Positions 1 to 38,980 of a stretch of DNA of 64,000 nt are shown piece after piece; position 1 is the first letter of the stretch; every line of letters begins with the position of its first letter. This DNA is from a virus. Lineage: Duplodnaviria > Heunggongvirae > Uroviricota > Caudoviricetes. The DNA lies in the IMG/VR virus record IMGVR_UViG_2537561978_000005. The stretch is one strand, 5' to 3'. A model generated the notes under the pieces. That model saw only the letters and a program-made list of their open reading frames with translations, made no database searches and had not been told where the DNA came from. A program made the position numbers and the translations under genes.

Positions 1-75
1 CGCGGACAGTGGATCGCAAAAGTGAAACATGTTGTTCGTTTGTCTCGCTGGTAGCATTAGATATTTAGTATTAAT

Positions 76-87
76 TTTCTAATACAT
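76..87. promoter_or_regulatory. operator-like motif TTTTCTAATACA upstream of the lpa-position ORF
   Basis: member of a TTTCTAAYA-core motif family recurring in >=8 intergenic regions; core resembles recalled P1 C1 operator consensus ATTGCTCTAATAAATTT. Confidence 0.3.
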
Positions 88-162
88 TCATCTTTTTACC
101 AGTCTATACAGTTTTAACATTCTCATTATCATCCCCTCGGTCATTTCCTGCCCGGGGGATTA

Positions 163-555
163 ATGGAACAAATCAGCAGCGCAGAAATTGCGGATATCAT
201 GATCAGGGCTGACTGCTATCTGACAGTCACTGAAATTACCACTCTCGCCAAAGAAAAATACCCTCATCTCCATGTTTCACGAGTAAGTGTAACTAACATC
301 ATTCGTCATTTTGTTCGTTCAAGCAGGGCAATCTGTGAGCTTGATGATCGTGTTTACCCACGAAAATACTGGTTGCATGGCCTGAACGGATATCAGTTCA
401 AGGTGCGTGGGCGAACCCCTGAATATGGCAGTTTACTGGTTAAAAACTGTAGCAGGAAATCAGTCGAACAGGCGCGAAAAGAGCAACGAGAGCTGGTGGA
501 CATGGCGAATAAGCTGTGGAATGCCGCCGTTAAAAAGCGTGGTGTTGCTTTATGA
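163..555 (+). CDS. small protein at the position of P1 lpa (late promoter activator); function unverified
   Basis: 130-aa ORF; stop overlaps pacA-like start (ATGA at 552-555); synteny lpa-pacA-pacB. Confidence 0.35.
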   Translation: MEQISSAEIADIMIRADCYLTVTEITTLAKEKYPHLHVSRVSVTNIIRHFVRSSRAICELDDRVYPRKYWLHGLNGYQFKVRGRTPEYGSLLVKNCSRKSVEQARKEQRELVDMANKLWNAAVKKRGVAL

Positions 556-1916
556 GTCTGGTTAATTGGGAGGAGCACCGCGCCCGCTTTATAGCGTTGC
601 GTGAAGAAAAAGGGATCACTGTAAAGGAATACTGTGAGGAGCATGGCCTTAGCTTCAATACAGCCAGAAAGCATCTCAATATGAAAAAAAATGAGGTGCG
701 GTCGCAGGTAAAGACAACAAAAAAAAGCACCAAATCACCTGAAAAAAAACGGGCGGGAAGAGCAACAAAAAAGCTGGAAGAGGGTGCAGAAAAAACAAAA
801 TTTACAGAAATTGACAATTCGCAGGGCGCAGGTTCTTTCCGAAGTATGCCGAGAAAGAAAACTTCGGATCATGAAAATAATTCAAATAATAACAATGAGA
901 TAAAAGAATCTGTCAGGAGATCATTGCGCGAAAAAATGGCGAAAATGATCCCCGAAGAAGATAAAAACGCCCCAAAAATTGAGGGATCTTCTGCAATGAT
1001 CCCTGACGGTGCTGTGCAGCGTGCCACATTGCCAACTACGAATGTGGCTCGCGATATGATGAAGAACGGCGCAGAAGAACACCTGCGGTTAGCAATTCAA
1101 ATGGCGCAAGAGCGCGCACTTCAGTATCAAAGCATTGTTGATCAGGAGGCCGAACGTCTACAGGCGGAAATAGACGCCTTGGGCGATAAAGAGCCAGAAG
1201 GAATGCACCCTGGGCAGCGCCTTCTCGGTCTAATCAGTGACGCGGCCTACTACATGAATGATTTTATCAGTAGGTTGGCAGCTATATATCAGTCCGAACA
1301 AAAGCTGCGACAGGGGGATGAAAAGCTTCGTCAGAGCGCTCGCCAGCAAGCATTCAAAGAGGCTGAGGCCAGAGAAAAACTCGAATTAGCACGCCTACAG
1401 GCCGAACAGCGTGGCAAAGAGATTGAATATCGCATTGGCGCTGACGCACGCGCAGCCAGAGTTATCGCCGCCGCTATACGTATGCGTGAGCGCGAGGAAC
1501 TGGATGATATCGGTGTTGCTGAATACATCGAGCGCCAGGGTGTCAGCGTCCCGGCTATCCTCGCGGCGCGCGCGGCGAAAGCTATCACTCTTCTCGAACC
1601 ACCTGTTTCTGACGTCAATGATGTTGATGATGAACAGCTGGACAAAGAGGCAAGGGAGTTTGCAACGCTTCAGGCTAACCATCCGCAATGGCTGGCAGAG
1701 CGCCGGGCGGATGTGGCAACCATTGTTGAAGAATTGGGGTGCGGAGATTACGACCGCAATGGCGAGCGTAAAGCTGGAGAATTCGAGGCCAACGACGAAG
1801 AGCTGGATATTGACCCTTCGGCAACGGCTGAAATTTACGGTGATTATGATGCATCTGATGCAGGGTATGACGCCGGAGATGATGATATCGCGATAGAACC
1901 GCCGGAGGATGATTAA
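552..1916 (+). CDS. pacA: terminase small subunit-like protein (PacA-like)
   Basis: 454-aa ORF translationally coupled (TAATG at 1914-1918) to large terminase; contains GATC-rich pac-like cluster. Confidence 0.55.
   Translation: MSLVNWEEHRARFIALREEKGITVKEYCEEHGLSFNTARKHLNMKKNEVRSQVKTTKKSTKSPEKKRAGRATKKLEEGAEKTKFTEIDNSQGAGSFRSMPRKKTSDHENNSNNNNEIKESVRRSLREKMAKMIPEEDKNAPKIEGSSAMIPDGAVQRATLPTTNVARDMMKNGAEEHLRLAIQMAQERALQYQSIVDQEAERLQAEIDALGDKEPEGMHPGQRLLGLISDAAYYMNDFISRLAAIYQSEQKLRQGDEKLRQSARQQAFKEAEAREKLELARLQAEQRGKEIEYRIGADARAARVIAAAIRMREREELDDIGVAEYIERQGVSVPAILAARAAKAITLLEPPVSDVNDVDDEQLDKEAREFATLQANHPQWLAERRADVATIVEELGCGDYDRNGERKAGEFEANDEELDIDPSATAEIYGDYDASDAGYDAGDDDIAIEPPEDD
867..1001. other. 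candidate pac site: five GATC hexamers (GGATCA, AGATCA, TGATCC, GGATCT, TGATCC) in 135 bp
   Basis: GATC at 867, 918, 947, 985, 998 inside pacA; P1 pac is a cluster of Dam-methylatable TGATCA/G hexamers within pacA. Confidence 0.4.
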
Positions 1917-3424
1917 TGGCTGGCGGGCGCAAGATTAAATGCGTCACCAGCGATCCACGCTGGCGCGATATGGTAATCAAATACCGCTACAACTTTACCC
2001 AGGCTGTAGTCGATATTTTTGGGATGTTCCCCTCCCACCAGCAGCAGCAGATCATTCAGTCAGTGCAGGAAACGGGGAGTAGGACGACCGTCACGTCCGG
2101 ACACGGAACGGGGAAGTCGTCCCTTACCGCGATGTTGCTGTTGATTTTTATGATCCTGTTCCCCGATGCCCGTGTCATCATTGTTGCTAACAAGATAGGC
2201 CAGGTAAAAACAGGCGTATTCAAATACGTTAAACAGTATTGGGCGAATGCAGTTAAGCGTCATGGGTGGTTGCAGACCTATTTTGTCCTCTCTGACACCA
2301 TGTTTTATGAGCGCTCCCGTAAGGGGATTTGGGAAGTTCTCTGCAAAGGTTATCGACTCGGCAACGAAGAAGCGCTGGCGGGGGAACACGCGGCACATTT
2401 GCTTCTAATTCTGGATGAAGCATCTGGTATATCTGATAAGGCGATCGGCGTAATGACCGGTGCTCTTACTGAAGAAGATAACCGGATGTTGATGCTATCC
2501 CAGCCAACAAGGCCAAGTGGTTATTTCTACGATTCGCACCATTCTCGAGCAAAAACCCCAGACAACCCGAAAGGGATCTGGACAGCAATTGTTCTTAACT
2601 CGGAAGAATCACCGTTCGTCACACCACAATTCATCAAGGAGAAGCTTCTGGAATATGGTGGGCGCGATTCTATTGAGTACATGGTCAAGGTGCTTGGTCA
2701 GTTCCCACGAGAAATTAACGGCTATTTGCTTGGTCGTGATGAATGCGATCGCTCTGCTCGCCGCAAGGTGTTGTTGGAGAAAAACTGGGGATGGGTGGCA
2801 ACGGCTGACGTTGGTAATGGGCGAGATAAGTCGGTCCTCAACATCTGCAAGGTATCAGGTCACAGGGATAAGCGGCGCGTTGTTAACTTTAAGGTAATGG
2901 AGATGCCTGGCACTATGGACCCATTGGCCTTTGCTGACTTCATATATAACGAATGTACGCCGGAAAAATACCCGAATATAACAATCGCGGTTGATGCTGA
3001 TGGTTTTGGTTCTGATACGTGTGCGCAGTTGGTGCGTCGTGGTGCGAACCCGGTACGTATTCGGTGGGGAAAACCCATGTTTGCGAACAAAGACAGGGAG
3101 CGATTTGTTAATCAGCGTGCCTACGCAAATATTATGGCGCGAGATGCCATAAAGTCAGGGCGTATGCGGATAGACAGTGACCCTAAAACGGCAGAGCAAG
3201 CGTCAAAAATCCCCTTTTTACTGAATGAAGAAGGGAAAATGGCGATGATGCGCAAAGAGCACATGCGGCAAAAGCTAAACATCAAATCGCCTGACCGATG
3301 GGATACCTACTGCTTCACTATGCTGGTGGACTATGTGCCTGCTAATGAAGATATTGGTGCCGAAATGGCAACTTTCCGAGATCAGGTTCTGGCGGATATC
3401 GAAATGCCGGATCTGGATATATAA
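1916..3424 (+). CDS. pacB: terminase large subunit (PacB-like)
   Basis: 502 aa; Walker A SGHGTGKS, Walker B LLLILDEAS, C-terminal acidic nuclease-type motifs ATADVGNG and IAVDADGFG. Confidence 0.8.
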   Translation: MAGGRKIKCVTSDPRWRDMVIKYRYNFTQAVVDIFGMFPSHQQQQIIQSVQETGSRTTVTSGHGTGKSSLTAMLLLIFMILFPDARVIIVANKIGQVKTGVFKYVKQYWANAVKRHGWLQTYFVLSDTMFYERSRKGIWEVLCKGYRLGNEEALAGEHAAHLLLILDEASGISDKAIGVMTGALTEEDNRMLMLSQPTRPSGYFYDSHHSRAKTPDNPKGIWTAIVLNSEESPFVTPQFIKEKLLEYGGRDSIEYMVKVLGQFPREINGYLLGRDECDRSARRKVLLEKNWGWVATADVGNGRDKSVLNICKVSGHRDKRRVVNFKVMEMPGTMDPLAFADFIYNECTPEKYPNITIAVDADGFGSDTCAQLVRRGANPVRIRWGKPMFANKDRERFVNQRAYANIMARDAIKSGRMRIDSDPKTAEQASKIPFLLNEEGKMAMMRKEHMRQKLNIKSPDRWDTYCFTMLVDYVPANEDIGAEMATFRDQVLADIEMPDLDI

Positions 3425-3425
3425 A

Positions 3426-3442
3426 GCCCCGCGATGCGGGGC
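3426..3442. terminator. GC hairpin GCCCCGC-GAT-GCGGGGC between convergent genes
   Basis: perfect 7-bp stem between pacB stop and end of minus-strand gene; A/T-rich flank on minus side. Confidence 0.4.
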
Positions 3443-3451
3443 CGGTTGTGA

Positions 3452-4489
3452 TTACCAGAGCTTCGCGGCGTACTGCGTTTGGGGGAATGTGTATCCGTAA
3501 CGTTCTTCGATTGCTTTGCCGTATTTTTTACGAGCTTCATTCAGTTTTATGCCGGTCAGGTCGTCTCCAGAGGCCATCATTACGTCTAACAATTCCAGAT
3601 CCATTTTATCCAGCCTTGCCATTGCTTCACGTGATGTACGTATCTTACGCTCAATGATATGGCGAATAGCCGGATCGGCATCCTCCAGCATCTTAGCGGA
3701 TTTCTGCTTAAGGCTTTCATTGCGAATATCGATGTTCCTTAAGATGTACGACTTCGCAACGTAGCTTGGCTGGTGTTTTTCCAGGTCACGAACACGATAT
3801 AAGTTAAAATCGCCGAGAAGGCTGCAAGGTACCGATTCGACGCCAGAATAAATTGTAATGCTCCGGCGCTCACCAACATTATTGACAACGGGGATCGTTG
3901 TCTTCGGTAGTCTTGCGAAAACCAATGCGCCATGTGCGCCAACTCTAAAGCGAGAAAGGGCATTGCTGCCTTCGATGTTTGTTGTCAGCACAACATCTGT
4001 ATATGCCTCTTTACGCGCCCGGTAGATCTCGCCTTCAGGCTCAGCTTCAAAGAAGCGCTGTTCTTCTTCAAGAGCACCTACGATTTGAGAAAAAACCCTA
4101 TTTTTCAGGCTTTTCTTTATGATTTTGTCGTATTTTTTGAGCAATTGTTCACGTGTAAATGTACGTGTTGTTGTAGCGCTTTGCACAACAACATGCGTGC
4201 TTTGATTGGTGTCCTCAATGATGAATGGGATCGGAGAATATACAGACTCAACAATGTTCGACGCTTTGCCGTCGGCATCGCGGCACATGTCAACGAAGGC
4301 TTTCCATTCAGCAAGACATTTTTCAGCTTCTTCTAATATGTTTTGGTCATGCGTTAATGCAACATGGCGGAATTCCTCGCCAGCATAACTGGTATCATGG
4401 AAAACAGAGTTTGCGACCACCAGCTCTTTCCACCGTTCAGCGGTTTGCAGGAACCGTTTGTACTCTTTCTCGATCGACTTCTTACTCAT
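3452..4489 (-). CDS. hypothetical protein at the position of the P1 c1/immC repressor gene; identity unverified
   Basis: 345-aa ORF convergent with pacB; operator-like motif immediately upstream; no motif I can assign. Confidence 0.55.
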   Translation of the reverse strand: MSKKSIEKEYKRFLQTAERWKELVVANSVFHDTSYAGEEFRHVALTHDQNILEEAEKCLAEWKAFVDMCRDADGKASNIVESVYSPIPFIIEDTNQSTHVVVQSATTTRTFTREQLLKKYDKIIKKSLKNRVFSQIVGALEEEQRFFEAEPEGEIYRARKEAYTDVVLTTNIEGSNALSRFRVGAHGALVFARLPKTTIPVVNNVGERRSITIYSGVESVPCSLLGDFNLYRVRDLEKHQPSYVAKSYILRNIDIRNESLKQKSAKMLEDADPAIRHIIERKIRTSREAMARLDKMDLELLDVMMASGDDLTGIKLNEARKKYGKAIEERYGYTFPQTQYAAKLW

Positions 4490-4507
4490 TATTCCTACTC
4501 GATTTAG

Positions 4508-4524
4508 TTTTCTAACATAAAATT
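4508..4524. promoter_or_regulatory. operator-like motif TTTTCTAACATAAAATT upstream of 3452..4489
   Basis: TTTAGTTTTCTAACATA shared almost exactly with the site at 18701-18719 (reverse orientation). Confidence 0.35.
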
Positions 4525-4698
4525 ACTATGACAAATTTATGTCGAATAACAGAGTGAGTAAAGGATCGAACTGTGATTTTTTGTCATCAAATTTAGAAAA
4601 CCAACTGTATAAACCACGCTTCGCAAATTAAAGACCATGAAGGCAACGTGTTACTGGTCAGAATCAATCTGTGATGGATTAAAAAAAATCGCCATTTT

Positions 4699-4732
4699 AT
4701 AACTTTAAATAATTGGCATTATTTAAAGTTAG
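4699..4732. other. lox-like site: 13-bp inverted arms ATAACTTTAAATA / TATTTAAAGTTAG around 8-bp asymmetric spacer ATTGGCAT
   Basis: 34-bp architecture and arms resemble loxP (ATAACTTCGTATA-8bp-TATACGAAGTTAT); 150 bp upstream of cre-like gene. Confidence 0.7.
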
Positions 4733-4883
4733 GCTATAATTATGGGTAGATGATCAGTATTGACATCACTGAAAATACGCGCCTCGAATCAAAGGCTTGA
4801 ATCTTGAAAATTAACTTATAGCTACCCTGTCATTTTTATATTTTTCGCGTAGCGTTATCTGTATATAGAGGTTAAATAGTTTC

Positions 4884-5912
4884 ATGAGTGAATTAATTAT
4901 CTCTGGCAGCTCCGGTGGTTTTCTGCGCAACATTGGCAAAGAGTACCAGGAGGCCGCAGAAAACTTTATGCGGTTCATGAATGACCAGGGGGCTTATGCG
5001 CCGAATACTCTGCGCGACCTCCGGTTGGTGTTTCATTCATGGGCGCGCTGGTGTCACGCTCGCCAGCTTGCCTGGTTTCCGATCTCACCAGAAATGGCCC
5101 GCGAGTATTTTCTTCAGCTGCATGATGCCGATCTGGCTTCGACCACCATTGATAAGCACTACGCCATGCTGAATATGCTGCTTTCGCATTGTGGCCTTCC
5201 GCCACTTTCGGATGATAAAAGTGTTTCTCTGGCTATGCGGCGCATCCGGCGCGAAGCGGCAACTGAAAAAGGCGAACGAACAGGCCAGGCTATACCGCTT
5301 CGGTGGGACGATCTGAAACTGCTCGACGTCCTGTTGTCCAGGTCAGAACGGCTGGTGGACCTGCGCAACCGGGCTTTTCTCTTTGTTGCATACAATACGC
5401 TGATGCGTATGTCGGAAATCTCGCGTATTCGTGTAGGAGATCTGGATCAAACAGGTGACACTGTCACGCTACATATTTCACACACGAAGACAATAACGAC
5501 CGCCGCCGGGCTTGATAAGGTGCTTTCCCGTCGCACTACCGCTGTGCTGAATGACTGGCTGGATGTTTCCGGGCTTCGCGAACATCCTGACGCAGTGCTG
5601 TTCCCGCCGATACACCGTAGCAATAAGGCCAGGATCACGACAACGCCCCTTACTGCACCTGCAATGGAGAAAATATTCAGCGACGCCTGGGTGTTGCTGA
5701 ATAAAAGAGATGCTACGCCAAACAAAGGAAGATACCGGACGTGGACCGGGCATAGTGCACGCGTCGGGGCCGCTATTGATATGGCTGAAAAGCAGGTGTC
5801 TATGGTGGAGATCATGCAGGAAGGAACCTGGAAGAAACCGGAAACACTTATGCGGTATCTTCGCCGTGGCGGCGTGTCTGTGGGGGCTAATAGCCGCCTG
5901 ATGGATTCGTAA
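4884..5912 (+). CDS. cre: Cre-like tyrosine site-specific recombinase
   Basis: 342 aa; aligns along its length with recalled P1 Cre incl. NRAFLFVAYNTLMRMSEISRIRVGDL, HSARVGAA, catalytic Y in LMRYLRRG. Confidence 0.9.
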   Translation: MSELIISGSSGGFLRNIGKEYQEAAENFMRFMNDQGAYAPNTLRDLRLVFHSWARWCHARQLAWFPISPEMAREYFLQLHDADLASTTIDKHYAMLNMLLSHCGLPPLSDDKSVSLAMRRIRREAATEKGERTGQAIPLRWDDLKLLDVLLSRSERLVDLRNRAFLFVAYNTLMRMSEISRIRVGDLDQTGDTVTLHISHTKTITTAAGLDKVLSRRTTAVLNDWLDVSGLREHPDAVLFPPIHRSNKARITTTPLTAPAMEKIFSDAWVLLNKRDATPNKGRYRTWTGHSARVGAAIDMAEKQVSMVEIMQEGTWKKPETLMRYLRRGGVSVGANSRLMDS

Positions 5913-5915
5913 ATT

Positions 5916-5930
5916 AAATTTCTAACACAT
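5916..5930. promoter_or_regulatory. operator-like motif AAATTTCTAACACAT downstream of cre
   Basis: TTTCTAACA core. Confidence 0.3.
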
Positions 5931-5985
5931 CTTTTTAGATTAACGCCTTTGCTGTAAAGTACCCTCGCCTATTTAGGAGGGTGCT

Positions 5986-6330
5986 TTGCAGAGTCAAATC
6001 ACGGAATCAAGACGCTTCAAGGTGGATGGTTACACCGTAACCTTCGCCGCTGGTGTTAAGAACAGTCATGCTGTCGTTGTGTTCGGCATCATGACCGGGC
6101 TTGAGGCCGTCCCTGTGTTTACCCTCGAAAAAAACTGGCGAAATCTGGAGGAAGCAGAAAGCTACGTCCGGAAAGTAACCATCATTGCCGCCGAAAAACT
6201 CCTGGCCCACTATCAGGAAAATTATCGCACTATGGTCGAGAAGATTAATCTCGCTTTCACTCGCCCCACTACCGGCTTTATTGCACCGGATACTAATGCC
6301 GGTCGATATCCTGCAAGGGGGTGTCGGTGA
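5986..6330 (+). CDS. hypothetical protein
   Basis: 114-aa ORF, TTG start with AGGAGGG RBS 5 nt upstream. Confidence 0.5.
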   Translation: MQSQITESRRFKVDGYTVTFAAGVKNSHAVVVFGIMTGLEAVPVFTLEKNWRNLEEAESYVRKVTIIAAEKLLAHYQENYRTMVEKINLAFTRPTTGFIAPDTNAGRYPARGCR

Positions 6331-6803
6331 AAACTTATTACCCATCTCTGAATTGTTACCCGTCTTCCTATCCAGAATTATCCGGGAAGCTGTTAGCTCT
6401 ATTAGCTAAAGCACCTACGGAATGGTTTAAGCCAGTCGTTATCAATCCACACTTCCTGGGTTACGGATCTGTTCGCACTCGTAACGAACTCAAAAACCTA
6501 CTGGCGCATGGATTCATTCGACACCGTGCCGGGAAAGGCTATCAGTTAGCGATTGCGCCAGAAGAGGCCGTGCGGCTATTCGCATATCGTGACAGCCAGA
6601 CAAAAACTCGGGTAATAGCTCAAATACTTCATAACGGCAGCACCTATGCCCGCCAGTTTGGCGGCGACACGTCGCAGTTCTTGCGGGCGGTGCGATCGCT
6701 GGATGAGCAAGGAGTTATTGAAAGTTCCTGTCTTCCTGTTCCTACCGTTCCACATATCAAACGTCGGGTTTACACCTTCACGCAGAGAGCTAAAAAACAA
6801 TGA
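6321..6803 (+). CDS. hypothetical protein
   Basis: 160-aa ORF; stop overlaps dut start (ATGA). Confidence 0.5.
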   Translation: MSVKTYYPSLNCYPSSYPELSGKLLALLAKAPTEWFKPVVINPHFLGYGSVRTRNELKNLLAHGFIRHRAGKGYQLAIAPEEAVRLFAYRDSQTKTRVIAQILHNGSTYARQFGGDTSQFLRAVRSLDEQGVIESSCLPVPTVPHIKRRVYTFTQRAKKQ

Positions 6804-7294
6804 TTTACGTAAAAGTGAAACGCCTACATCCGGCAGCAAAACTTCCAGCTTATGCCACCTCCGGATCGGCGGCGATGGATTTTGAGGCTGTTGAAATAAA
6901 ACCATGCGTCGATAGCAATGGTGCAATTTCCTCAAGCTGGTGGGTGTATACCGGACTGGCTATGGAGATCCCGCCCGGCTGGTGTCTGAAACTCTATCCG
7001 CGATCAGGATTGGGCTGCAAAAAACATACTCGCCTGGCTAACTGCGTAGGAATTATCGACTCCGATTATCGCGGCGAAATCATGGCAAAACTGATTACTG
7101 ATCCCGGCGGGGAAGGCGTTTGTCTCAAGCCTGGAATGGCTGTCATGCAAGGAATTTTTGAGCGTGTTGAACAAGTCTCACTAGTCGAGGTTGAGGAACT
7201 CAACGAAACGGAGCGTGGTGCTGGTGGCTTTGGTAGCACATCGGAAGGCCACTTTGAAATTAAGCGTTCACCGCTTCAGTACGAAAAGTTATAA
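6800..7294 (+). CDS. dut: dUTP diphosphatase (dUTPase)
   Basis: 164 aa; motifs RSGLG and GIIDSDYRGEI typical of trimeric dUTPases. Confidence 0.8.
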   Translation: MIYVKVKRLHPAAKLPAYATSGSAAMDFEAVEIKPCVDSNGAISSSWWVYTGLAMEIPPGWCLKLYPRSGLGCKKHTRLANCVGIIDSDYRGEIMAKLITDPGGEGVCLKPGMAVMQGIFERVEQVSLVEVEELNETERGAGGFGSTSEGHFEIKRSPLQYEKL

Positions 7295-24850: not shown

Positions 24851-25156
24851 ATGCTCTATGCGGTTCCTCAGCAAGCTTCTGATTCTTTGAAGTTAATCAA
24901 GACTGTACTTCAGCTTATAGCATCTCAACAAGAAGTGTCACAGCAGTTAAAGTTACGGGTTTATGAGGTGATCAGAGAAGCCTCAAACTTAAGTGTAGAT
25001 AAAGGTGATCAATTACAGATTCCTTCTCACAGAGAGTCCATCTCGCTCGCGGTAGAGATACGCCACACTAAGGCGCTCGCCCAGGTGCTAACCAAAGTAA
25101 CTAGCGAAGATATGTTAGAACCCGTAATGGCCCGGAATGTATTAGAGTACATTTAA
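24851..25156 (+). CDS. hypothetical small helical protein (first gene of AT-rich cassette)
   Basis: 101 aa; GGAGGGG RBS; stop overlaps next start (TAATG). Confidence 0.5.
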   Translation: MLYAVPQQASDSLKLIKTVLQLIASQQEVSQQLKLRVYEVIREASNLSVDKGDQLQIPSHRESISLAVEIRHTKALAQVLTKVTSEDMLEPVMARNVLEYI

Positions 25157-36708: not shown

Positions 36709-38980
36709 CCTTAGATATGGTTCAGTTTGCAGTGGAATTGAAGCAGCGAGCATTGCCTGGGAACCGTTGGGTATGCGTCCGGCGTGGTTTGCTGAAATCG
36801 AGCCTTTTCCATCTGCCGTTCTTGCGCACCGCTGGCCCCATGTCGCCAACCTTGGCGATATGACAAAACTTGCCAAAAAAGTCCTGGCTGGGGAAATCGA
36901 ATCCCCTGATGTGCTCGTCGGGGGAACACCTTGTCAGGCATTCAGTATCGCTGGATTACGTGGTGGGCTTGATGATGAGCGTGGCGCGCTAACTTTAAAG
37001 TATGTGGAGCTTGCAAATGCAATTGACGACAAACGGGCTGAGTCATTTCTCAAACCAGCCGTTATCGTCTGGGAAAATGTCCCAGGAGTCTTGTCATCGG
37101 CAGATAACGCCTTCGGATGTTTCCTTGCCGGATTGGCTGGAGAAGATGCGCCATTCGAACCAGGTGCTCGACCTGAATCACGAAAAAGTAACGCGTTCTG
37201 GCGGTGGGATGTCAAAACCAGTTGCCATGCTCCAAAGTGGCCGCAGTGTGGTTGTATTTATGGACCGCAGCGAAAAGTGGCCTGGAGAATCCTTGATGCC
37301 CAATACTTCGGAGTGGCACAACGACGCCGACGCGTGTTTGTTGTCGCAAGTGCTCGAACAGACCTCGATCCCGCAACGATACTTTTTGAGTTCGAAGGCG
37401 TGCGCCGGGATATTGCGCCGAGCCGAAAAAAGAAGGAAATCGCTTCCGCCATTATTGCAAATGGCGCTGCAATCAGTGGCGAAAGCCTAAATCCATGCCT
37501 ACACGCTGACATTCCACCCGGTATGAAATCGACGAAAGCCGTAAACGCTTTCAGGATGGCAGCATTTGGGGAATATATTGACGATGAAACCGCATCGACA
37601 GTAAAGGCAAGAGATTTTAAAGATGCCACTGACCTTACCGTTTTTAGCAGCACAGGAGCAGGTTTTTGGTCAGAAGGGCATGGTACATTGCGGGCACGTG
37701 AGCAAGAAAGCCATGAGCATCTTGTTACATTAGCTTTTCCTGAGCGTATGAGCGGTACACAACATGCTGCAACTAAGAATACTTCACCATCTCTAATGGC
37801 TCAAAATCCAACAGCCGTTTGCTATGAAGTAAGAAACGCAGAAGTAGCTGTCCGCCGTCTTACCCCTGTCGAATGTGAAAGGCTGCAAGGTTTTCCTGAT
37901 GGGCATACGTTGATCCCTACGGAAAAGCGTAAAACAATTTCCTCAGATGAACTGGCATACCTTCGCAATCACTATCCAGATTTAAGCGAAGAAGAAGCCG
38001 CGATGCTCGCTGCTGACGGGCCGCGTTACAAAGCGATTGGCAACAGCATGGCAGTTCCTGTTATGCAATGGATTGGGTGTCGCATTCTTGCGACTGTGGA
38101 AGCTAAACAGCCAAAAACAATAAATACCATTACCTACACAAGAAAACTCCGGACTCCGGATGAATATGAGCGTCCGATCTTCAAATGGGTAGGCGGTAAA
38201 TTCTCAGAGTTGCCTACAGTGCTTGAGCATCTACCACACGGCAAGCGGTTAATAGAACCGTTCGTTGGTGGCGGTTCTGTATTTACGAATGCAGGATTTC
38301 GCCACAACCTGCTTAATGATATTAACGGTGACCTGATTAACTTCTATCAGACATTGCAGCGAGAAGGACATTCGCTCGTCACGCTGTCATATAGTTTTTT
38401 CCAAAATTACAACAACGCTGACGCTTACCTCGAAGTGCGTGAGGCATTTAACAGAGGAAAGTATGACCAGCTACATCATGCTGCCGCCTTTTTGTACCTT
38501 AATCGGCACTGTTTTAATGGCGTAACGCGGTACAACCAAAATGGCGAGTTCAACGTGGGGTATGGCAAATACAAAGCGCCCTACTTCCCACATGCAGAGA
38601 TGGAGGCATTTTTGGCTGATGACGTACTCAAAAACACGTCCTTTGTATCAGGTGACTTTGCTGGCGTCATCGAGGCGGCTGGTGAAGGCGATGTGATTTT
38701 TTGCGATCCGCCGTATGAACCGCTGCCGGATACAGAAGGGTTTACCAGTTATTCAGGAAATAGCTTCCGTTTCGACGAACAGAAACGGCTGGTATCTCTA
38801 TTGGTGGAAGCCCACCAGCGCGGCGCTAAGGTAGTGATAACAAATAGTGGTGCGCCAAACATCCGTGAACTATATGAAGGAAACGGGTTTAAAGTACATC
38901 ATATGGCAGCCAGACGGTCGGTTTCCTGCAAGGCGTCAACACGTGTAGTTGCTAACGATATAATTGCAATAATGAAGTAA
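36692..38980 (+). CDS. dmt: bifunctional DNA methyltransferase: N-terminal C5-cytosine MTase fused to C-terminal Dam-like N6-adenine MTase
   Basis: [12 protein letters not shown] (PCQ) and ENVPGV motifs N-terminally; DPPY motif C-terminally; likely GTG start 36692 (GGAGG 9 nt upstream) rather than track start 36620. Confidence 0.85.

Follow-up and report, generated by a model that had tools for sequence, protein, structure and literature searches.

The 32-bp sequence at 4700–4731 and the gene at 4884–5912 of the analyzed DNA (a stretch of 64,000 nucleotides, hereafter the window) are almost certainly the rox site and the cognate dre recombinase gene of a D6-like plasmid prophage of the P1 family. 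This identification is based on the site, the protein, and the gene order, all three of which are identical to those of the Dre/rox system of phage D6. The latter was reportedly described by Sauer and McDermott in 2004 (NAR 32:6086). The initial annotation of this DNA had implied a novel lox-type site, which does not hold in view of a site identical to rox and a protein identical to the Dre of D6. Overall, the Dre/rox found here is an already known system, and the observation is real but ordinary. The relevant features, in window coordinates, are the following:

163–555: lpa ORF, matching lpa in the D6 immC record once the constant 209-bp offset is taken into account
552–1916, plus strand: packaging gene pacA; the ORF matches pacA of AY753669 with a 209 bp offset
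1916–3424, plus strand: packaging gene pacB; the ORF matches pacB of AY753669 with a 209 bp offset
3452–4489, minus strand: c1 repressor gene, equal to c1 (3661–4698) of AY753669 with a 209 bp offset
4700–4731: rox, 32 bp, the Dre target, assigned by sequence identity; its published orientation, TAACTTTAAATAATGCCAATTATTTAAAGTTA, lies on the minus strand
4700–4713, plus strand: left 14-bp arm, TAACTTTAAATAAT, a Dre binding element, 14/14 complementary to the right arm
4714–4717, plus strand: asymmetric 4-bp centre TGGC, which sets the direction of rox
4718–4731, minus strand: right 14-bp arm, an inverted copy of the left arm
4713–4740, plus strand: promoter-like TTGGCA-16-TATAAT, an 11/12 match to the sigma-70 consensus, overlapping the rox centre and right arm
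4884–5912, plus strand: dre, coding for the tyrosine recombinase Dre of 342 aa, with 342/342 identity to D6 Dre (AAV84949.1)

The rox site, its recombinase and the replicon

The 34-bp sequence at 4699–4732 reads ATAACTTTAAATAATTGGCATTATTTAAAGTTAG and was present exactly as first annotated. It occurred only once in the 64 kb, even with up to three mismatches allowed, and 100 dinucleotide-preserving shuffles gave 0 matches. Read on the opposite strand, its inner 32 bp (4700–4731) match the published rox, composed of TAACTTTAAATAAT-GCCA-ATTATTTAAAGTTA, at every base. The 34 bp had initially been divided in the loxP manner into 13-bp arms and an 8-bp spacer, and such a 13-8-13 parse is possible, with the claimed symmetry of the arms at 12/13 positions reproduced. 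The accepted form of rox, however, has an asymmetric spacer of 4 bp with an inverted repeat of 14 bp on either side, the arms being defined as 14 bp long (PMC4777119, PMC12331466), and the sequence at 4700–4731 is a perfect 14-4-14 palindrome with 14/14 paired arm positions around the TGGC centre. This parse fits the sequence at 4699–4732 better than the loxP-style one. As far as the site’s functional limits are concerned, the bases flanking the 4-bp centre govern the compatibility of rox sites, and it has been argued from mutants that the functional crossover region may still resemble that of loxP in length (PMC4777119). The base immediately outside the left arm (4699) was A in the window and in D6, and C in 9 of 29 loci; in most of those nine, this C and the G at the position of 4732 extended the site to a perfect 15-4-15 palindrome.

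The gap between the 34-bp site and the ATG of dre (4884) is 151 nt, so the position upstream of a Cre-like gene stands as first annotated, with the distance corrected from 150. The Dre protein contains a Pfam Phage_integrase domain (PF00589, E=5e-17) and shares 41% identity with P1 Cre; R175, K202, H290, R293, W316, and Y325 are invariant between the two. Conservation of the Cre active-site residues in Dre has also been reported elsewhere (PMC4777119, PMC12331466). The best PDB matches of Dre were Cre chains (E=5e-69), and a search by sequence among the PDB entries found no solved structure of Dre itself, only Cre and Tre chains. The window dre and the dre of D6 (5093–6121 of locus L001) differ at 30 of 1,029 nucleotides, 28 of them at third and 2 at first codon positions, and all the differences are synonymous. 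That the proteins are nevertheless identical at 342/342 residues points to strong purifying selection.

The genomic setting is that of a P1-like plasmid prophage, with rox located directly upstream of dre and beside c1 and pacAB, and the order lpa-pacA-pacB-c1-rox-dre is common to the window and the D6 immC record (AY753669). The DNA identity between window positions 1–7108 and this record was 98.3%. Its misc_recomb feature rox (4909–4940) aligned base for base with 4700–4731, and the identity extended beyond the 34-bp site, by 6 bp on its left side and by 10 bp on its right. Moreover, a megablast search with positions 4500–6000 against GenBank phages matched only Escherichia phage D6 records (96% identity), in which the matched features were ‘dre: tyrosine recombinase’ and ‘region of crossover (rox) site for Dre recombinase’. 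On a larger scale, the first 25 kb of the window were 99% identical to the E. coli plasmid NZ_CP117014.1 (95.9 kb) and 96–98% identical to many non-mobilizable plasmids of ~90–96 kb from E. coli and Salmonella; the DNA identity to phage D6 was ~96.5% over about half of this length. The near-identity to plasmids, together with a match to D6 over only about half the length, identifies the window as a plasmid prophage of E. coli that is D6-like without being D6 itself. Related DNA was present in 240 of 5,426 complete E. coli genomes, nearly always on plasmids.

Conservation of the rox–dre module and occurrence of its arms elsewhere

In an alignment of eight rox–dre intergenic regions, the distant relatives, with a recombinase ~90% identical and local DNA ~78% identical, kept the same 32-bp core, while their upstream flank could not be aligned. 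A scan of IMG/VR with the rox arms fixed and the 4-bp centre left free gave 23 contigs. In all of them, a Dre-like ORF (70–100% identical) was located 151 bp from the site unless the end of the contig or locus intervened, and, such contig-end cases aside, it was always on the side to which the TGGC strand points. The same direction was observed in 25/25 fetched loci having both a TGGC centre and a downstream dre start. The spacing of rox and dre was exactly 151 bp in the window and in the 28 fetched loci where the site and the dre start could be located, and it was held even in the locus of a Dre homologue of 70% identity. The conservation of the site, its linkage to dre, and the features of the enzyme all support a functional rox at this locus.

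The exact rox arms were also searched for in 185,579 species-representative genomes, with a single match in a Clostridia MAG (OZ007016.1, 6381–6412 of locus L011), where both exact 14-bp arms enclose a TAAT centre. Here the arms form an intergenic hairpin, very rich in AT, that is flanked by convergent ORFs; the 8-kb locus contains no Dre-like ORF, and the match looks like a coincidental terminator-like palindrome. It would act as a perfect-arm pseudo-rox if Dre were ever applied in such an organism. The hairpin implies that AT-rich DNA can give rise to such arms by chance, and it is from here that one could argue for the window site being a chance AT-rich palindrome or hairpin terminator with no role in recombination. 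We regard this as extremely improbable, given that the linkage to dre at 151 bp is invariable here, that the site is conserved while its flanks have diverged, and that rox is annotated and experimentally employed as the target of Dre. Furthermore, no gene end precedes the site: transcription of c1 leads away from it, and dre begins only beyond it. There is likewise next to no probability that the site is a previously unrecognized lox variant with a specificity unlike that of every characterized Cre-like system. The 12 of 34 positions that differ from loxP and a recombinase just 41% identical to Cre would be in line with such a variant, but it is refuted by the identity of both the site and the protein to the rox and Dre of D6, known since 2004. 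The site and gene are, therefore, best read as rox and dre of a D6-like prophage.

The possibility, raised initially, of a second copy or a better-conserved site elsewhere was not borne out: neither another rox nor a pseudo-site was found in the 64-kb window (~30 kb of the replicon lies outside it). The best off-target had 9/28 arm mismatches, which is within the range of shuffled sequences (minimum 8, median 10), and no loxP site better than 12 mismatches was present in the 64 kb. Two half-site-like arm matches with 2 mismatches each, at 24882–24895 (minus strand) and 36990–37003 (plus strand), were rejected, having no inverted partner and being at chance level.

Apart from the canonical site, several natural variants of rox were encountered. 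Locus L017 (3706–3737) has the centre TAGC beside a Dre homologue that is only 70% identical, and locus L024 (12405–12436) has the centre GGGG beside a Dre of 99.4% identity. A site with one centre and one arm base changed, TTGGAGTT, is located at about 443–476 in the locus from the E. coli JS316 plasmid NZ_CP058619.1 (L009), and a 6-change rox site at about 303–336 in that from the S. dysenteriae 204/96 plasmid NZ_CP026808.1 (L008). These four are possibly heterospecific or decaying sites. If the variants TAGC, GGGG, and TTGGAGTT were truly heterospecific rox alleles, they could extend the Dre toolbox. The 169-kb Salmonella plasmid pSa1423-160k (NZ_MK356558.1, locus L003) carries what looks like a decayed rox–dre module: its rox has a truncated right arm (…TTTAAAGAAGC), and for the dre region the annotation gives no more than three short hypothetical ORFs.

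A promoter-like sequence overlapping rox

The −35 element of the promoter-like match at 4713–4740 is formed by the rox centre, while its TATAAT abuts the right arm, and the whole points at dre. No other match of at least 11/12 to the promoter consensus was found in the 64 kb, the shuffles having 1.5 on average. The overlap of rox and promoter is annotated in neither the D6 nor the P1 records examined. In addition to being the crossover site, rox might serve dre as the −35 part of its promoter, in which case bound Dre would repress its own transcription, although we consider such a dual role rather unlikely. In its favor, the 11/12 match is correctly oriented and precedes the dre ATG by 143 nt, and 27 of the 29 loci have retained the TATAAT, among them that of the 70%-identical homologue, in which neighboring bases are changed. 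In addition, the annotated cre promoters of P1 are found between lox and cre, in a spacer of 418 bp that also contains cra; this region is absent here. On the other hand, this is only a match to a consensus, of which chance would give about one in 64 kb, and most of the 29 loci are closely related and hence not independent. The −35 hexamer is already constrained by the recombination site, and the natural variant with the GGGG centre abolishes it. Finally, a second TTGACA at 4761–4766, present in 8/8 aligned sequences, could be the −35 element of another promoter. If the dual role were true, the recombination site would be coupled to a promoter, and occupancy of rox by Dre would autoregulate dre.

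Probable natural role and comparison with known systems

Following the Cre/loxP paradigm (PMC4777119), one Dre monomer would bind to each 14-bp arm, that is, two per rox site, and two rox sites would synapse as a tetramer of four Dre monomers. Y325 would then cleave and exchange one pair of strands followed by the other, via a Holliday junction in the central region. The asymmetric TGGC centre would set the direction of the site, leading to either excision or inversion, and the reaction needs no accessory factors. In P1, Cre/lox circularizes the terminally redundant infecting DNA and resolves dimers of the plasmid prophage so that the copies can segregate. By analogy, circularization and dimer resolution are most likely the natural role of Dre/rox as well. 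Both the annotation ‘rox site (lox in P1)’ in MF356679 and the conserved location next to pac and c1 fit such a Cre/lox-like role.

The closest known system is the Dre/rox of D6 itself (AY753669, MF356679), with the same 32-bp site, a protein identical at 342/342 residues, the same 151-bp spacing, and the same pacA-pacB-c1-rox-dre order. The difference is in the replicon, the window being a different D6-like plasmid prophage. The string TAACTTTAAATAATGCCAATTATTTAAAGTTA occurs in three papers found by full-text search, one of which is dedicated to rox sites (PMC4777119). Dre/rox was described in 2004 and is now widely used (PMC3973285, PMC12331466); Dre recombines rox both in E. coli and in mammalian cells, and the system was met again in two E. 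coli strains (PMC4957104).

Cre, the tyrosine recombinase of the P1 Cre/loxP system, shares both the fold family and the catalytic residues of Dre, and the lox–cre neighborhood of P1 likewise adjoins c1 and pac genes. The architecture is 13-8-13 in loxP as opposed to 14-4-14 in rox. The 34-bp site is identical to loxP at 22 of 34 positions and different at 12, and is thus not loxP. The loxP arms share 10/13 positions with the window site and, exactly as first annotated, differ at three (CGT in loxP, TAA in the window), a three-base difference also noted for rox and loxP in PMC4957104 (Figure 7 legend). The spacer had been called unrelated to that of loxP, which is roughly right, with 3/8 bases matching in one orientation. 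The distance from lox to cre in P1 is 418 bp (18–435 of locus L010) and accommodates cra, three annotated cre promoters, and Dam sites, whereas the rox–dre gap of the window has 151 bp (4733–4883), only one GATC (4752), and no counterpart of the cra region.

Dre-dependent recombination of rox, with none on loxP, has been reported for identical sequences (PMC3973285, PMC4957104, PMC4777119, PMC12331466). No cross-recombination between Dre/rox and Cre/loxP is reported (PMC3973285, PMC12331466), and there was no crosstalk in B. subtilis (PMC12331466). The recombination assays of rox versus loxP were already done two decades ago. The initial expectation of a diverged Cre-like enzyme with orthogonal specificity and biotechnological value was correct, as it describes Dre/rox, for which this was experimentally shown in 2004. 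The value of the present case is that of a sanity check: a reading of raw sequence recognized a lox-like site and predicted its orthogonality correctly. The window offers no new recombinase biology, only small leads, namely the promoter overlap and the handful of natural rox variants.

A further Cre-like system, Panto/pox of Pantoea sp. aB, has arms only one nucleotide different from those of rox, and its specificity overlaps with that of Dre/rox, either recombinase being active on rox as well as on pox (PMC4957104). Panto is, however, only 52% identical to Dre, and rox is not compatible with the spacer of pox (PMC4957104). Overall, the system found here is the one that has served since 2004 as a Cre/loxP-like orthogonal tool for genome engineering and is in routine use today.
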